Shown in pieces: positions 15,598 through 57,048 of a stretch of DNA of 64,000 nt. A program made the position numbers and the translations under genes. Below the pieces are notes generated by a model. It saw only the letters and a program-made list of their open reading frames with translations. It was not told where the DNA came from and did not search any database. The DNA lies in NCBI GenBank assembly GCA_963785725.1, contig CAWAWS010000039.1, positions 32,001 through 96,000 on the forward strand, read 5' to 3'. How positions within the stretch are numbered: the stretch's first letter is position 1; each line of letters opens with the position of its first letter. The stretch comes from an uncultured delta proteobacterium. Its GTDB lineage: Bacteria; Myxococcota_A; Polyangia; Palsa-1104.

Positions 15598-16569
15598 TCA
15601 AGCCGGCCGCGTCGCCCCCACGAAGAGCAGGCTCCCGAAGGGCACGCCCGGTGTGACGGGGAAATCCTCGGCCCGCACATCGGCGCCCGTGTGCGGCACG
15701 TCGACCATCACGTCCTGGTCGTTGACCACGCCGACGAACAGCCCAACGTGGTCGATGGACCCCGGCCCGCTCCCGAAGAAAACGAGATCGCCCGGCGCCA
15801 GTGCGGCGCCCGGTGCCAGCTTCCTCGTGGCGTCGTACTGGTCCTCGGCCACTCGGGGCAACGCCACCCCAGCCACCGCATAGGCGGCCTGCACGAGGCC
15901 CGAGCAGTCGAAGCCCACGCCGGGCGTCTCGCCGCCCCAGAGGTACGGCGTGCCGATCTGCGAGAGGGCCCATGAGACAGCTACGGCGCCCGCGCTATCG
16001 TCCACCACCGGCGTCGCCGTGACCGCCCCCGCTCCGGCCGATGCCGCGGCGTAGGACTCTGCCAGCGCGAGCACCTGCGCCACATACGTAGCCGAGTGGT
16101 TGTAGGCGTACACGGCGTCCGACAGGTCGGCCCCGCCAGCCGCCCCGTCAGCGCAGAGGAGACGGGCTGCCGCATATACGGCGTCCGTCGGGTCGTAAGG
16201 GCTCGGCGGGTTGGCCCCGCCGACAGGCACCGGCTCGTCGTAGGCTGCAAAGGTCTTCGGCAGAAACTGCATGGGCCCTTCGGCCCCGGCCGAATTGGCG
16301 CCGTCGTGCACGCCGGGGAGGTTCGACTGACCATTGTCCGACTCGATTGTGCCGATGGCAGCCAGGATCGTCCAAGGCAGTCCCAGGCAGGTGCCGGCCG
16401 CCTGCTGGTAGAGCGTCAGCATGGTGGTAGGGAACTGCGCTATCGCTGCCGAAGATGCCGCAGGAGCACCGCCGCCACCGAGCAGCGAGGCCGCCGAAGC
16501 CAGAATCGCCGTCCCAATAAAAGCCGCGGCCAGCCCGACCGCCAGTCCGGCGGCAACCAGGCCCTTCAC
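15598..16569 (-). CDS. Bifunctional lytic transglycosylase / NlpC-P60 peptidase (conjugation-type cell wall hydrolase)
   Basis: WTILAAIGTIES..GAEGPMQF (SLT) plus GTPYLWGG..FDCSGLV..DHVG (C40). Confidence 0.9.
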   Translation of the reverse strand: MKGLVAAGLAVGLAAAFIGTAILASAASLLGGGGAPAASSAAIAQFPTTMLTLYQQAAGTCLGLPWTILAAIGTIESDNGQSNLPGVHDGANSAGAEGPMQFLPKTFAAYDEPVPVGGANPPSPYDPTDAVYAAARLLCADGAAGGADLSDAVYAYNHSATYVAQVLALAESYAAASAGAGAVTATPVVDDSAGAVAVSWALSQIGTPYLWGGETPGVGFDCSGLVQAAYAVAGVALPRVAEDQYDATRKLAPGAALAPGDLVFFGSGPGSIDHVGLFVGVVNDQDVMVDVPHTGADVRAEDFPVTPGVPFGSLLFVGATRPA

Positions 16570-23359: not shown

Positions 23360-24472
23360 CTAGAGGTACTGGCCGATGGACGCCGTGGATGAAACCACAC
23401 CCTCGTGTCCCGCCCCCTGGCGCAGCGACAACAGCTCGGCCAACGTGGCCTCGACCTCTCGAGGAAGAGCCCGGTCGCCGAGCCACTTGCGGGCTTCGCT
23501 CGCAGTCAGCTTGCCGACCTCAACCTGCGCGATACAGCGACCTGGCCGGACGATGGCAGGGTGAAGCCGGGCAATGGGTTCGTTCGTCGTGAGAGCGATC
23601 AGAATTGACCTCCCCTGGCCCAGCAGACCGTCGGTCAAGTTGAGCAAACGAGCCAGACCCTGGCCGGATCGCTCCTTGGCGCCGGCCGTGATGAGCTCGT
23701 CACAGTCTTCAAGAATCAAGAGCCGTGACTTTGTTGCCTTCGGCTTCTCTTCCCGATCGTCCTCGGATTGGTCATCTTCTTCGCCCAGGGCGACATTGAG
23801 CAGGTACGCAGGGTCAGCAAACAGATGCTCTGGATCGACCACGTAGTCGAATCGGCACCAGCCTCGCCACGCGTCGGCCAACGCACGCAGCGCCGTGGTT
23901 TTACCAGTGCCCGGAGGGCCGTGGAGCAGCAGGAGCTTTCCGGACAGCAGGCCACGATTGCGTCCCATGAGGTCATCTAGAGCCCGCGCCGCGTTCTTCG
24001 TGTAGTTAGGTCGGATATCCTGCCAGGTCCGTACTTCGACCCGTCGCTCGTGGCGAACTGGGCCGTGACGCCCTTGGTGCCAAAACCCCACCGCAACCTT
24101 GGTGTGATCGATCGTTTTGGGTTCTTCGGCTCCCGCCTTCGAGGCATCGAGGATGTCTTTGGCCAACTGTTCGGATACCGCGAGCACGGTGATCCTGGCG
24201 TTTCCGTGAGCCCATCGAACGACGCTCGTAATCCAACCTGGGCCAGCCGCCAACACTGATCGGGTCCCGTCGAACATTGCGACCCGATCAGGCTCAATCC
24301 CCGGTGGCAACAGGCTGGCCCCGTCGCGGGCGCGAGACAACGTCACACTCCGTGCGTAGCGGTAGTGGCCTGAGATGTAGTGCTCGACAAAGAGCAGGTC
24401 GTTCGCATCGACAACCGAATCGGCGTCGTCGAAGGACATAACTCTTTGCGAGGTGCGTGGAATCTTGTTCAT
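23360..24472 (-). CDS. AAA+ ATPase (DUF5925-type N domain) with C-terminal GQYL
   Basis: Walker A GPPGTGKT, Walker B LLILEDCDE, sensor-1 TTN, Arg finger VRPGR; ends SIGQYL*. Confidence 0.85.
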   Translation of the reverse strand: MNKIPRTSQRVMSFDDADSVVDANDLLFVEHYISGHYRYARSVTLSRARDGASLLPPGIEPDRVAMFDGTRSVLAAGPGWITSVVRWAHGNARITVLAVSEQLAKDILDASKAGAEEPKTIDHTKVAVGFWHQGRHGPVRHERRVEVRTWQDIRPNYTKNAARALDDLMGRNRGLLSGKLLLLHGPPGTGKTTALRALADAWRGWCRFDYVVDPEHLFADPAYLLNVALGEEDDQSEDDREEKPKATKSRLLILEDCDELITAGAKERSGQGLARLLNLTDGLLGQGRSILIALTTNEPIARLHPAIVRPGRCIAQVEVGKLTASEARKWLGDRALPREVEATLAELLSLRQGAGHEGVVSSTASIGQYL

Positions 24473-50684: not shown

Positions 50685-52439
50685 TTGGCGGTGACTGAAA
50701 CTCCTGACGAAGCGGCTGCCCAGGCTGAGGCGCTACGCGCCGAGCTGGCAGATGCCGAGGACGAGATTCACGCGCTCCGCCGCCGGTTGCAGGAAAGCCC
50801 CGGCCGGGTGCAGGCCCTGGAGGAGCGCCTCCTCGAGTCCAAGGGGCAGCTGGCGCAGGCCACCTCGCAGAACGAGAAGCTGACCTTCACCCTCCAGCAG
50901 GCCAAGGAGCAGCTGGCCGCCCTGCGCGAAGAGGTCGAGAAGCTCACACAGCCTCCGGCGGCCTACGGCACCTTCCTCGGCATCAACGAGGACGGCACGG
51001 TCGACGTGTTCTCGAGCGGTCGCAAAATGCGGGTCAGCCTCCACCCCGACATCGACCCCGGAGCGATCCGCAAGGGCAACGAGGTCGTCCTGAACGAGAG
51101 CCTCAACGTGGTGCTCGTCCGCGACGGGGAGTTCTCCGGCGAGGTGGTGACACTGAAGGAGCAGCTCGAGGACAAGCGGCGCTGCGTGATCTTCGCCCGG
51201 GCCGACGAGGAGCGGGTGGCCGAGCTCTCCGAGGACATGCTGGGCGTGAAGCTGCGCGCCGGCGACTCCCTCCTGATGGACGTGCGCACCCAGCTCCTCA
51301 TTGAGAAGCTGCCCAAGCTCGAGAGCGAGGAGCTCGTCCTCGAAGAGGTGCCCGACATCACCTACGCGGACGTGGGAGGTCTGGACTCCCAGATCGAGGC
51401 CATCACCGACGCCGTCGAACTGCCGTACATGCACCGCGACCTCTTCGTGGAGTACTCGCTCCCGGCCCCGAAGGGCATCCTCCTCTACGGCCCGCCCGGC
51501 TGCGGGAAGACGCTGATCGCCAAGGCCGTGGCCAACTCCCTGGCCAAGAAGGTGGCGCTGAAGACCGGCAACGACAACGTGCGGAGCTTCTTCCTCAACA
51601 TCAAGGGTCCGGAGCTGCTCAACAAGTACGTGGGGGAGACGGAGCGCCAGATCCGCCAGGTCTTCCAGCGTGCCCGTGAGAAGGCGGACGAGGGCATGCC
51701 CGTCATCGTCTTCTTCGACGAGATGGAGTCGCTCTTCCGCACGCGGGGAACCGGCATCAGCTCCGACATGGAGTCGACCATCGTGCCCCAGCTGCTGGCC
51801 GAGATCGACGGGGTCGAATCGCTGCGTGACGTCATCGTCATCGGCGCGTCCAACCGGGAGGACCTGATCGACCCGGCCATCCTGCGGCCCGGCCGGCTCG
51901 ACGTGAAGATCAAGATCGAGCGGCCCAACGAGGAGGCCGCCGGCCAGATCTTCAGCCGCTACCTCACCCCGGCCCTGCCGCTCGACGCCGAGGAGGTCAA
52001 GCGCCTGGGCGGCGGCGACCCGTCCAAGGCGGTCCAGGCCATGATCGAGCGGACGGTGGCCGAGATGTACCGGGAGGACGACGACAACCGCTTCCTCGAG
52101 GTCACCTACCAGAACGGCGACAAGGAGATCCTCTACTACCGCGACTTCGCGTCGGGCGCCATGATCGAGAACATCGTGCGCAGAGCCAAGAAGCTGGCCA
52201 TCAAGCGGGTCATCGCCGGGGAGTCCGGCGGCATCCGGACCTCGGACATGCTCGAATCGATCCGCCAGGAGTACAAGGAGAACGAGGACCTGCCCAACAC
52301 CACCAACCCCGACGACTGGGCGCGTATCTCGGGCAAGAAGGGTGAGCGGATCGTCTATGTCCGGACGCTGCTCACCGAGGACCGTGAGGTGCACGGAGGC
52401 CGCTCGATCGAGCGGGTCGGTACCGGTCAGTACCTCTAG
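50685..52439 (+). CDS. arc: Proteasome-associated AAA ATPase ARC/Mpa
   Basis: N-terminal coiled coil, [30 protein letters not shown]-terminal GQYL. Confidence 0.97.
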
Positions 52440-52455: not shown

Positions 52456-53948
52456 GTGGCCATCACGAAGGTCTGCGGCATTGAGACCGAGTACGGCATC
52501 CATTCGCCCGGTCCGGAGCAGAACCCCATTGCCGCATCGTCGGTGCTCGTCAACGCCTACGCGGCCGACGTGGAGCAGCAGATCGGCTGGGACTTCGAGG
52601 ACGAGACCCCGGGAAACGACGCCCGTGGCTTCGCCCGGGAAGGTTCCCTCGCCCCGATGGTGGAGACGCACCTGGCCAACACGGTGCTCACCAACGGCGC
52701 CCGCTTCTACGTGGACCACGCCCACCCCGAATACTCGAGCCCCGAGTGCCTGACGCCGCTGGAGTGCCTGATCTACGACAAGGCCGGCGAGGAGGTGCTG
52801 CGCCGGTCCATGGTGGCGGCGGCGCTGCGCATCCCCGACCAGCCTGCACCGATCGTCTACAAGAACAACTCCGACGGCAAGGGCAACTCGTACGGCTGCC
52901 ACGAGAACTACATGATGGACAGAGCCGTCCCGTTCGCCAAGGTGATCGACGGCGTCGTCCCGCACTTCGTGTCGCGGACGCTCTTCACCGGCTCGGGCAA
53001 GGTCGGCACGGAGACGCCCGCGCTCGATGCGGACACCGTGCAGTACCAGCTCTCCCAGCGCGCCGAGTTCTTCGAGGAGATCGTGGGACTGGAGACCACG
53101 CTGAAGCGACCGATCGTCAACACGCGCGACGAGCCCCACGCCGACCCCAAGCGCTTCCGTCGCCTCCACGTGATCGTCGGCGACGCCAATCTCTCGGAGA
53201 TCGCCACGTTCCTCAAAGTCGGCAGCACCGCCATTGTGCTGGCCATGGTCGAGGACGATGCCGGCCCGACCCGTGACCTCTCGCTCTCCGACCCCGTCGC
53301 CGCGCTCCACCAGGTGTCGGCCGACCTCACGTTGACGCGCCCCTCTCGCTGACGGACGGGTCGACCGCCACCGCCCTCGAAATGCAGTGGGAGATCTTCG
53401 GCGCGGCCCGGAAGTACGCCGAGGAGTTCGGCCTGACCGCCCTGGGCGACGACGGGGAGGTCGGGGCGCTGGTGATGGAGCACTGGGAGGCCGTCCTGTC
53501 CGGCCTGGAATCGGACCCGGCCACCCTGGCCGACACCCTGGACTGGGTGGCCAAGCGCGAGCTCCTGCTGGCCTACCAGGACCGGCACACCTGTGGATGG
53601 AAGGACCCCCGGATCGCTGCACTGGCGTTGCAGTATCACGACCTGCGGCCGGACAAGTCGGTGTTCCGGCGCCTGGACATGCGCACGCTCGTCACGCCGG
53701 CACAGGTCGCCCATGCGGTCAGCGAGCCCCCGACCGGGACGCGGGCCTGGTTCCGGGGCAAGTGCCTGGCCCGCTGGCCGGACGCGGTCGTCACCGCCAA
53801 CTGGGATTCCCTCGTCTTCGACGTCGGCGCAGACCCGTTGCGGCGCGTCCCTATGATGGATCCCCTCAAGGGAACAGCCGAGCACACGGGCGCCCTCCTG
53901 GCACAGAGCACAGGACCGGCCGATCTGCTCACCAGGCTCAACTCATAG
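52456..53948 (+). CDS. dop: Pup deamidase/depupylase (frameshift ~53345)
   Basis: [49 protein letters not shown]. Confidence 0.95.
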
Positions 53949-53987: not shown

Positions 53988-54194
53988 ATGGCAGAACAGG
54001 AACAGAAGAAGAAGGGCTCGGGTGCGCGGACCACCGAGACCGAGACAGAAGTCGAAGAGGCCTCACCCGCCAGCTCCGAGCGGGGCGAGAAGATCAAGGC
54101 CGAGCTGGACGACCTGCTCGACGAGATCGACGAGGTGCTCGAGGACAACGCCGAGGAGTTCGTCCGCAACTACGTGCAAAAGGGTGGGCAGTAA
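53988..54194 (+). CDS. pup: Prokaryotic ubiquitin-like protein Pup
   Basis: DDLLDEIDEVLEDNAEEFVRNYVQKGGQ. Confidence 0.98.
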   Translation: MAEQEQKKKGSGARTTETETEVEEASPASSERGEKIKAELDDLLDEIDEVLEDNAEEFVRNYVQKGGQ

Positions 54195-54200
54195 CCCCCG

Positions 54201-55001
54201 GTGGCGCTTCCCCTGTTTCCCCCGGAGCGTGATCCGGGCCCGGACTTTGTCGGCCTCCTGCGCATGACGTCGGGCCAGGCCGACACGCCGCGCCCGCTCG
54301 ACTCGTTGACGCCGGTCCAGGCGCCGCACGGCACCACCGTGGTGGCGCTGCGCTACCTCGACGGTGTGGTGATGGCCGGAGACCGGCGCGCCACGGCAGG
54401 CAACATCATCGCCCACCACGCCATGCAGAAGGTCTTCCCGGCCGACCGCTTCTCGGCGGTGGCCATCGCGGGAACGGCCGGCATGGCCATCGAAATGGTC
54501 CGCCTCTTCCAGGTGCAGCTCGAGCACTACGAGAAGGTCGAGGGCGCCACCCTCTCGCTCGAGGGCAAGGCCAACCAGCTGGCCCAGATGGTGCGCCAGC
54601 ACCTGCCCCTGGCCATGCAGGGCCTCGCCGTCGTCCCGCTCTTCGCCGGCTTCGACACCGCACGCGACCTGGGCCGCATCTTCAACTACGACGTGACGGG
54701 CGGCCACTACGAGGACACCGACTTCCAGGCCACGGGCTCGGGCGGACGCGACGCGCGCAGCACCATCAAGCTGGGCTGGCGCGAGGGCCTGGGGCGCGAC
54801 GAGGCGGTCGACCTGGCCATCCAGTCCCTCTACGACGCAGCCGACGAGGACTCCGCCACCGGCGGTCCCGACCTGGTGCGCGGCATCTACCCGATCATCG
54901 CCGTGGTGGACGCCGCCGGGTATCGCGAAGTGCCCGAGGACGAGGTGGCCGAGCGCTTCGGCGCACTGATCGCCCGCAAGCAAGCGGAGCGTGCGTCATG
55001 A
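54201..55001 (+). CDS. prcB: 20S proteasome beta subunit
   Basis: Propeptide then [25 protein letters not shown]. Confidence 0.97.
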
Positions 55002-55669
55002 GCATGCCGTACTACGTGGCACCCGAGCAGGTCATGAAGGACCGGGCCGAATACGCCCAGAAGGGCATCGCCCGTGGCCGCTCCCTCGTCGCCACGACAT
55101 ACGACGTGGGCATCGCCATCGTCGCCGAGAACCCGTCGCGCTCGTTGCACAAGATCAGCGAGATCTACGACCGGATCGCCTTCGGTGGCGTCGGCAAGTA
55201 CAACGAGTACGACCAGCTCCGCGTGGCCGGTGTTCGCCATGCTGACACGAAGGGGTACGCGTACAGTCGCGAGGACGTCGACGCCCGTTCACTTGCCAAC
55301 CTCTACGCGCAGTATCTCGGCAATGTCTTCACGCACGAGATGAAGCCCCTCGAAGTGGAGATCCTCGTGGCCGAGCTGGGCGAGGACGAGAATCAGCTCT
55401 ACCACATCGCCTACGAGGGCACGATCACCGACGAGGACCGTTTTGCCGTGCTGGGCGGCGACGCCGAGACCATCACCGAGCGCGTCGGTGCAGCGTGGCA
55501 GGCCGAGTGGGACCTCGCGGCCGCTGTCAAGGCCGCCACGACCGCGCTGGCGGGCCCGGACCGGACCCTGGCGGCCGGGGACCTCGAAGTGGCCATTCTG
55601 AGCCGGGGCAACGGGCGCCGCACCTTCCGGCGGATCGACGAAGAGGAGCTGGCACAACTGCTGGCATAG
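54998..55669 (+). CDS. prcA: 20S proteasome alpha subunit
   Basis: [36 protein letters not shown]. Confidence 0.97.
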
Positions 55670-55689
55670 GCAGCTGTACGGTTGGCCTG

Positions 55690-57048
55690 GTGGAACGCCG
55701 CATCTTCGGCATCGAGAACGAATACGGGGTGACCTTCACGCTGCGCGGGCAGCGTCGCCTCAGCCCCGACGAAGTGGCGCGCTACCTCTTCCGCCGCGTG
55801 GTCTCGTGGGGGCGCTCGTCGAACGTGTTCCTGGAGAACGGCGCCCGCCTCTACCTCGATGTCGGCAGCCACCCCGAGTACGCCACACCCGAGTGCGACA
55901 AGATCAGCGACGTCGTCGTGCACGACAAGGCGGGGGAGTGGATCCTCGCCCAGCTGGTGACCGGGGCGCAGGCGCGCCTGCGCGAGGAGGGGATCCGAGG
56001 CGAGGTCTACCTCTTCAAGAACAACACGGACTCCGTGGGCAACTCCTACGGCTGCCACGAGAACTACCTGACCGAACGAAACGACGAGTTCAACCGTTAC
56101 ACGGAGGTGCTCATCCCGTTCCTGGTCTCGCGCCAGATCTACGCCGGTGCGGGGAAGGTCCTGCAGACGGCGCGGGGCGCCGTCTTCTGCCTGAGCCAGC
56201 GCGCCGAGCACATCTGGGAGGGCGTCTCCTCGGCCACCACCCGCAGCCGGCCCATCATCAACACACGGGACGAGCCGCACGCAGACGCCGAGCGGTTCCG
56301 TCGCCTGCACGTGATCGTCGGCGACTCCAACATGAGCGAGTACGCGACCTTCCTGAAGATCGGGACCACCTCCATCCTCTTGGCCATGCTGGAGGACTCC
56401 TCGACGGTGCTGCGGGACCTGACCCTGGAGAACCCCATCCGGGCCATCCGGGAAATCAGCCACGACATCACCTGCCAGCGCCGCGTGCGCCTGGCCAACG
56501 GCCGTGAGATGCGCGCACTGGACATTCAGACCGAGTACCTCGAACGCGCGTTGAAGTTCCGGGACAGGCGCGGACTCTCGCCCGAAGAGGACCGTGCGCT
56601 CGACATGTGGGAGCACTGCCTCAAGGGCCTGGAGGCGGACCCGACATCCCTGTGGCGAGAATGCGACTGGGTGGCCAAGCACCGCCTGGTCGAGCAGATG
56701 CGGGCACGCCACGACGTGTCCCTCTCGCACCCGAAGGTGGCGATGATCGATCTGATGTACCACGATGTGGACCGGAGCCGCGGGTTGTTCTACAAGTTGC
56801 AGCAGCGCGACGAAATGGAGCGGACGTGCACGGACGACGCCATCACCGAGGCGATGACCAAGCCTCCCGAGACGACCCGGGCCAGGCTGCGGGGCGCGTT
56901 CGTGAAGCGGGCCAAGGAGCGCCGGCGGGACTTCACGGTCGACTGGGTCCACCTCAAGCTGAACGACCAGGCTCAACGCACAGTGCTCCTGAAAGACCCG
57001 TTCAAGTCACACGACGAACGGGTGGAGCGGCTCATCCAGTCCTTGTAA
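55690..57048 (+). CDS. pafA: Pup-protein ligase
   Basis: [54 protein letters not shown]. Confidence 0.97.

Follow-up and report, generated by a model that had tools for sequence, protein, structure and literature searches.

Why should a AAA+ ATPase that is neither ARC nor Bpa end in GQYL, as both of these activators of the 20S proteasome do? The question is raised by a 370-residue open reading frame (ORF) at 23360-24472 on the minus strand of the 64,000-nucleotide stretch of contig CAWAWS010000039.1 analyzed here (the window). The original prediction, made from the letters of this stretch, had quoted for this ORF the motifs GPPGTGKT, LLILEDCDE, TTN and RPGR and the C-terminus SIGQYL followed by a stop, all of which we recovered. 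Its interpretation, a Pup-independent proteasomal ATPase, is partly supported; kinship with Bcs1 and YjoB, the xGF tail of a sister branch and the phage copies were missing from it. We propose that the protein is probably a soluble Bcs1/YjoB-like AAA+ ring that docks its G-x-Y-L tail on the host 20S core and activates it independently of Pup, alongside ARC, Bpa and Cpa. The evidence in hand is the intact ATPase motifs, the Bcs1-like two-domain fold, the conserved tail on an unconserved linker and a tail type that tracks the host peptidase.

A conserved tail on an unconserved linker

The terminal GQYL (23363-23374, minus strand, as are all features of this gene) belongs to a family consensus G-x-Y-L, the conserved terminal motif looked for in a 20S activator. 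Among the best 120 matches (query included), 117 end in G-x-Y-L, comprising 68 GQYL, 23 GLYL, 18 GFYL, 6 GMYL and 2 GHYL; the other three are one GFYM and two with other ends, a 229-residue fragment and a 314-residue protein that matches 62% of the query. The tail also persists among distant homologs: the best 150 representatives of 50% clusters, reaching down to ~37% identity, include 99 that end in G-x-Y-[LMI], 3 with a near variant, 22 with xGF near the end and 26 with neither tail, many of these last being partial. The second position varies but G, Y and L do not, in agreement with the dispensability of the Gln of GQYL reported for Mpa and Bpa (PMC12288473, PMC6017811), and the Gly is invariant in both the Tyr-type and the xGF tails. 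The ~15 residues ahead of the tail are unconserved and predicted to be disordered. This linker (residues 352-366; 23375-23419) runs into a region of low predicted local distance difference test score (pLDDT <50 for residues 356-370), and after G353 no column of the family alignment is conserved until G367.

Just two of the 56,998 stop-to-stop frames of at least 80 residues in the assembly end in GQYL, the window ATPase and ARC, the proteasomal ATPase encoded in the same window. Given an expectation from composition of ~3e-6 per ORF and the G-x-Y-L found in 117 of 120 matches, the tail is not a chance occurrence. The original prediction had remarked that both genes finish with the same nucleotides; CAGTACCTCTAG is indeed present at both gene ends, and these are its only two exact occurrences in the window. 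The 12 shared nucleotides encode Gln-Tyr-Leu-stop in common codons (probabilities of a match from local codon use: Gln 0.73, Tyr 0.83, Leu 0.36) and the preceding Gly codon differs (GGC vs GGT), so the identity is uninformative and no sign of DNA transfer from arc.

Individual copies depart from this picture. In Streptomyces somaliensis the frame continues past the lid helix into unrelated sequence, either because the tail is lost or because the assembly is faulty. Two family copies lie side by side in one genome (G924) and at one further pair of loci (L117/L118), with a TAG inside one of the G924 copies.

Domain architecture and kinship with Bcs1 and YjoB

The suspected DUF5925-like N domain was identified by Pfam as PF19347 DUF5925 at residues 11-169 (23966-24442; 161 bits, E 3e-47), followed by AAA at 181-319. 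The protein also matches PHROG 33861 (E 4e-51) and is thus a member of two families, neither of which has an assigned function. The predicted DUF5925 fold is alpha/beta, with a single first helix of 14 residues and no coiled coil, and it matches the Bcs1-specific domain. In the AAA module the catalytic motifs are intact. Walker A (GPPGTGKT, residues 185-192; 23897-23920) has G185, G188, G190 and K191 invariant in 121 sequences. Walker B (LLILED, 23705-23722), within LLILEDCDE at 251-259, has E255 conserved at 99-100% and D256 at 100%, and the segment from sensor 1 (TTN, 295-297) to the two arginine fingers (RPGR, 309-312; 23537-23590 for the whole) has N297, R309 and R312 invariant. An acidic insertion of low pLDDT (residues 231-248; 23729-23782) separates helix 221-229 from the Walker B strand and is net acidic by at least 2 in 61% of 305 alignment rows. 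The lid (23420-23503) is short, with two helices of which the last is the conserved TLAEL. Neither the predicted structure nor the alignment shows an evident aromatic pore loop 1. No transmembrane segment was found: the peak 19-residue hydropathy, 1.04, falls inside the AAA sheet, and the N-terminal transmembrane helix of Bcs1 has no counterpart.

Foldseek placed Bcs1 at ranks 1-11 and YjoB at rank 12, the combination of a Bcs1-type N-domain with AAA being found over ranks 1-13. Bcs1 chains align over 280-293 residues including the N-domain, every other row over 190-219, and among the phmmer matches listed BCS1 is the only one that reaches residue 94. Walker B carries ED instead of DE, which is reported to mark the Bcs1/YjoB clade (PMC9565160). 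These fold matches and the ED signature place the modeled ATPase with Bcs1 and YjoB, not with ARC, Bpa or Cpa. The likeness extends over both domains and to a short pore loop 1 region; however, identity is 15-20%, the window ATPase has no transmembrane anchor, its lid is much shorter and its tail is of the peptidase type.

We also tried the window ATPase as a member of ARC/Mpa, Bpa/PafE, Cdc48/Cpa and Bcs1 proper, and it belongs to none of them. With ARC/Mpa it shares a single classical-clade AAA module, the terminal GQYL and the hosts, but it scores 17.9 bits on TIGR03689 against a cut-off of 504.75, is 25% identical to the window ARC over 151 residues of the AAA core only (residues 179-319), lacks the coiled-coil/OB N-region, has the ED Walker B and is encoded outside the pup operon. 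Bpa/PafE likewise carries GQYL on a flexible linker; it occurs only with prcAB, whereas the DUF5925 family shows that restriction, in the genomes examined, for its Tyr-type members alone, and it is Pup-independent, as we propose for the window ATPase. Bpa has no ATPase, however, and the window protein has no match to PF10759. The claim that the protein is neither ARC nor Bpa therefore holds. Cpa, the Cdc48-like protein of actinobacteria, is likewise an AAA ATPase, and it too has been proposed to interact with 20S. Cdc48-type proteins have two AAA modules, whereas the window ATPase has one together with DUF5925 and scores 33.9 bits on the CDC48 model TIGR01243 (cut-off 802.65). Cpa is described as lacking an HbYX tail, its last five residues being of little consequence.

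Tail type follows the proteasome

We compared tail type with the presence of prcA in 65 genomes with a readable tail, duplicates removed. A Tyr-type tail is accompanied by prcA in 50 of 50 genomes and an xGF tail in 3 of 15, the base rate of prcA in our phylum sample being 187/401. The 25 named genomes are Actinomycetota, all with prcA, and 24 of their copies end in G-x-Y-L. The family is found in 22 of the 401 genomes of the phylum sample: all 15 G-x-Y-L copies are in prcA-positive genomes, the six xGF copies are divided between three genomes with prcA (among them G770, which is unpublished) and three without, and one copy is truncated. In Acidimicrobiia (the class of G452) the distribution is patchy, with 16 genes in 15 of 251 genomes, all 15 of which have prcA; 13 tails read G-x-Y-L, one GGYV and one AGYV, and one is cut by a contig end. 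The reverse is seen in another class, probably Thermoleophilia judging by a named relative, P0434 (the class of G712), where the family occurs in 12 of 221 genomes, prcA in none of these 12, and all 12 readable tails are xGF. The single copy in 161 Chloroflexota genomes, in a host that lacks prcA, carries LGF where the tail would be. No Tyr-type copy turned up in any prcA-negative genome among those examined, but the family as a whole also has members, with xGF tails, in hosts without prcA. Homologs in genomes lacking prcAB, which the original prediction had named as a refutation if common, thus formally exist (the 12 of 221 genomes above). Because the 12 readable tails of that class are all xGF and not G-x-Y-L, these prcA-negative homologs fit docking rather than refute it.

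On trees built without the tail residues (305-row and 78-row sets), seven tail changes are needed, compared with shuffled means of 74 (305 rows) and 23 (78 rows), and well-supported branches force just two. A search for the hosts of the apparent switches found none.

Two xGF copies in prcA-positive hosts have distinct surroundings: the G546 copy has a helicase/RNase H gene and a cluster for cytochrome oxidase in its neighborhood, and the G556 copy the restriction-type genes T5orf172 and ResIII.

A sister branch with a ClpP-type tail

The ClpP docking tripeptide is given as (L/I/V)-G-(F/L) (PMC8745299). It fits 70 of 88 xGF tails and 5 of 180 Tyr-type tails, and a basic run precedes the motif in 48 of 88 xGF but 6 of 180 Tyr-type tails. 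The window ATPase, which reads I-G-Q, does not fit. The xGF motif tolerates 0-13 trailing residues and the Tyr-type motif none, as would be expected if only the Tyr-type needs a free carboxylate; a salt-bridge model of activator tail docking is given in a 2025 review. ClpP is present in all five xGF host genomes checked, and from its tails the sister branch likely docks on ClpP. In ClpX, ClpA and ClpC the same tripeptide is an internal loop (IGF), whereas in the sister branch it forms a near-terminal tail.

A phiKZ-like phage, MIJ3, XacN1, Myxococcus phage Mx1 and a plasmid of Bernardetia (Bacteroidota) each encode a more distant Bcs1-like ATPase, and all five proteins end in basic residues followed by [IVF]GF. 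Since these are five of five xGF, the comparison, although unrooted, suggests that xGF is the older tail state. Four of the five come from jumbo or large phages, including phages of Pseudomonas, Xanthomonas and Myxococcus, and the MIJ3 protein is annotated 'AAA+ ATPase and BCS1 domain'. A survey of jumbo phages proposes membrane-proximal virion assembly for such BCS1 orthologs and, in the portion available, makes no mention of a tail or a protease partner (PMC7824862); these proteins are distant sequence relatives of the window ATPase that share its lid helix and the placement of its tail, and differ in their xGF end.

Phage and plasmid copies

By tblastn, full-length copies were found in the mycobacteriophages Myrna (gp262), Phabba and ScoobyDoobyDoo, all three ending in VGQYL, and on a Kitasatospora plasmid, ending in GAYL. 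In the three phages the gene sits in a nicotinamide adenine dinucleotide (NAD)-salvage block between a phosphoribosyl pyrophosphate (PRPP) synthetase-like gene, whose stop it overlaps, and NadV. IMG/VR yielded 47 frames in 45 loci, which a strict script sorted into 7 Tyr-type, 15 xG[FL] and 25 other, the last class containing long fusions and some evident xGF ends outside the script's pattern. In one viral subgroup (L079-L087, L095, L106, L107, L111, L112) the terminal tail is replaced by long C-terminal extensions that belong to no known family, and the genes adjoin portal, head-morphogenesis and head-protease-like genes.

The original prediction had called the gene mobile cargo, which is partly right and holds for some lineages only. 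In its favor are the phage and plasmid copies and the lower-GC accessory stretch in which the gene lies (guanine-plus-cytosine content 0.58-0.69 around it vs 0.70-0.75 at 37-50 kb), its neighbors being unrelated accessory genes. Against it, no integrase, transposase or tRNA was found near the gene among 50 ORFs scanned, and in Streptomyces it is a syntenic chromosomal gene, 17 Streptomycetaceae loci sharing the same downstream cluster, represented by a GNAT gene. Inside the lower-GC stretch (2-33 kb), 15598-16569 encodes a protein with SLT and NlpC/P60; proteins of this combination are often seen on conjugative elements.

The proteasome locus and the origin of the contig

The window ATPase gene lies 26-33 kb from arc, pup, prcBA and pafA, all on the plus strand. 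The arc product (50685-52439) scores 753 bits on TIGR03689 and ends in GTGQYL, as had been predicted. It is followed by dop (52456-53948), pup (53988-54194), prcB and prcA (54201-55669; 329.5 and 304.1 bits), encoding the 20S core that would be the partner of the ATPase, and an open frame containing pafA (55495-57048). The products of arc, pup, prcB, prcA and pafA score above NCBIfam cut-offs, and that of dop below; dop is split over two reading frames (profile positions 2-297 and 330-483), a sequencing error or a pseudogene.

The contig itself (C39) appears misplaced. Neither prcA nor the DUF5925 ATPase occurs in any of 30 relatives of the assembly, C39 is a tetranucleotide outlier (3.89 on the second axis, other contigs at most 1.17), it carries the assembly's sole WhiB and sole prcA, and the named close homologs of the ATPase are Acidimicrobiales. 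We infer from these observations that C39 is an actinobacterial contig mis-binned into an assembly of another phylum, the 16S genes of which, on contigs C3 and C35, we take by their signature to be Myxococcota-like. No DUF5925 above cut-off was found in 400 genomes of the assembly's assigned phylum, a search that, given an actinobacterial C39, serves as a non-actinobacterial control.

Proposed mechanism and alternatives

Activation by the window ATPase may proceed in three steps. Six or seven subunits would join through their DUF5925 domains into a chambered ring, on the model of YjoB, a hexamer, and Bcs1, a heptamer. The flexible tails would then insert into the alpha-ring pockets, like those of Mpa and Bpa, and open the gate; we consider this step likely. 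The third step, delivery of Pup-free clients to 20S, is the weakest, and we favor it by a small measure. The chamber may trap clients, perhaps through the acidic insertion, and movements of the ring powered by ATP may then discharge them into the core. We prefer this to classical threading because no aromatic pore loop 1 could be discerned. Several AAA families are reported to serve the archaeal 20S (PMC3493965), a precedent for such an addition.

Two points weigh against this proposal. The 46 rows with known prcA status yield one independent pair, and the association of tail with prcA is consistent but statistically not independent of descent. Unfolding by the ring is also doubtful, as pore loop 1 looks absent from the model.

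The latter point favors the alternative that survives best, in which the tail binds 20S but the main effect of the ring is to occupy, open or block the core in competition with ARC and Bpa, without delivering clients of its own, the phage copies shutting off or redirecting host proteolysis. The gene is carried by lytic mycobacteriophages, all 22 family-bearing genomes tested from Tyr-type lineages already have Bpa (in one the tail is cut by a contig end), and Bpa is itself reported to block Mpa-dependent degradation through tail-dependent competition (PMC4254994). A plain plug, however, would not need catalytic motifs that are all invariant, and the gene is kept in 12 of the 13 prcA-positive genomes of at least 7 Mb in the phylum sample, so that we regard a blocking cap as unlikely.

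The single independent contrast is in turn what one would see if the protein were a stand-alone, YjoB-like chamber chaperone, its tail binding the ring itself or another partner and its match to prcA reflecting shared ancestry. YjoB and Bcs1, the closest solved folds, have no protease partner reported in the texts consulted, the Gly invariant in both tail types could mean one common binding site, and the virion assembly proposed for jumbo-phage BCS1 orthologs (PMC7824862) is echoed by the viral subgroup among head genes. This too is unlikely, for it leaves three things unexplained: the match of both tail types to known peptidase-docking motifs, the strictly free C-terminus of the Tyr form compared with the residues trailing xGF, and the absence of Tyr-type copies from the prcA-negative genomes examined despite a patchy spread among phages and hosts.

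That G-x-Y-L is an extended IGF loop still docking on ClpP (ClpP1P2), not 20S, is improbable. Position and Gly are those of the xGF tails, the window protein has I-G-Q-Y-L, and G-F-Y-L or G-L-Y-L occurs in some members, but so few Tyr-type tails fit the tripeptide, Gln is commonest where Phe or Leu is required, and the preceding basic run is lost. A tail that, exposed on its disordered linker, serves as a degradation tag sending the ATPase itself to a protease is hardly credible, both motifs being those of activators in the literature consulted and both being kept across members only ~35% identical.

Docking of G-x-Y-L on 20S by a Bcs1/YjoB-like ring thus remains the reading we prefer. Its history would be that of a wider lineage using a basic residue and [VIL]GF on ClpP, from which a change to the 20S motif took place in the actinobacterial branch and in some of its phages. 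We raise tentatively, as a broader possibility, that soluble Bcs1-like ATPases, in bacteria and large phages alike, make up an unrecognized class of peptidase caps with a swappable tail. In most hosts, among them phiKZ-like jumbo phages, this tail would be [VIL]GF and serve for ClpP, and in actinobacteria and mycobacteriophages it would be G-x-Y-L and serve for 20S; a heptamer would match the seven-fold symmetry of both peptidases, and phages would be commandeering host proteolysis.

Implications

A literature search, made without most subscription journals or supplements, found no paper naming DUF5925, and what it returned on GQYL and the proteasome concerned Mpa, Bpa, Cpa or unrelated topics, none of it, in the texts available, the DUF5925-AAA family or its tails. 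The suggestion that the family is undescribed is in keeping with this, and the conserved feature itself, a proposed AAA cap that bears an HbYX-type tail and belongs to a clade where none was expected, has apparently not been described before. The family may have been missed because the screen that found Bpa is reported to have covered M. tuberculosis genes only (PMC4254994) and no Mycobacterium genome is among the named matches. The 2025 review, in its available text, lists Mpa/ARC, PafE/Bpa and Cpa as the bacterial proteasome activators and states that nothing is known on the regulation of activator association.

Our claims are open to test by tail deletions in laboratory strains. If the proposal is true, the family would be a fourth activator, ATP-driven and Pup-independent, widespread in Streptomyces and relatives, and would give proteins an additional way into the 20S core. 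In that case the copies in mycobacteriophages would be phage-encoded proteasome activators, of which we found no report in the literature searched. Should docking on ClpP hold for the xGF branch, a link to proteolysis would be added to the roles of Bcs1-like ATPases, known as a folded-protein translocase and a holding chaperone, and a single short tail would account for an ATPase changing its protease along with its host.
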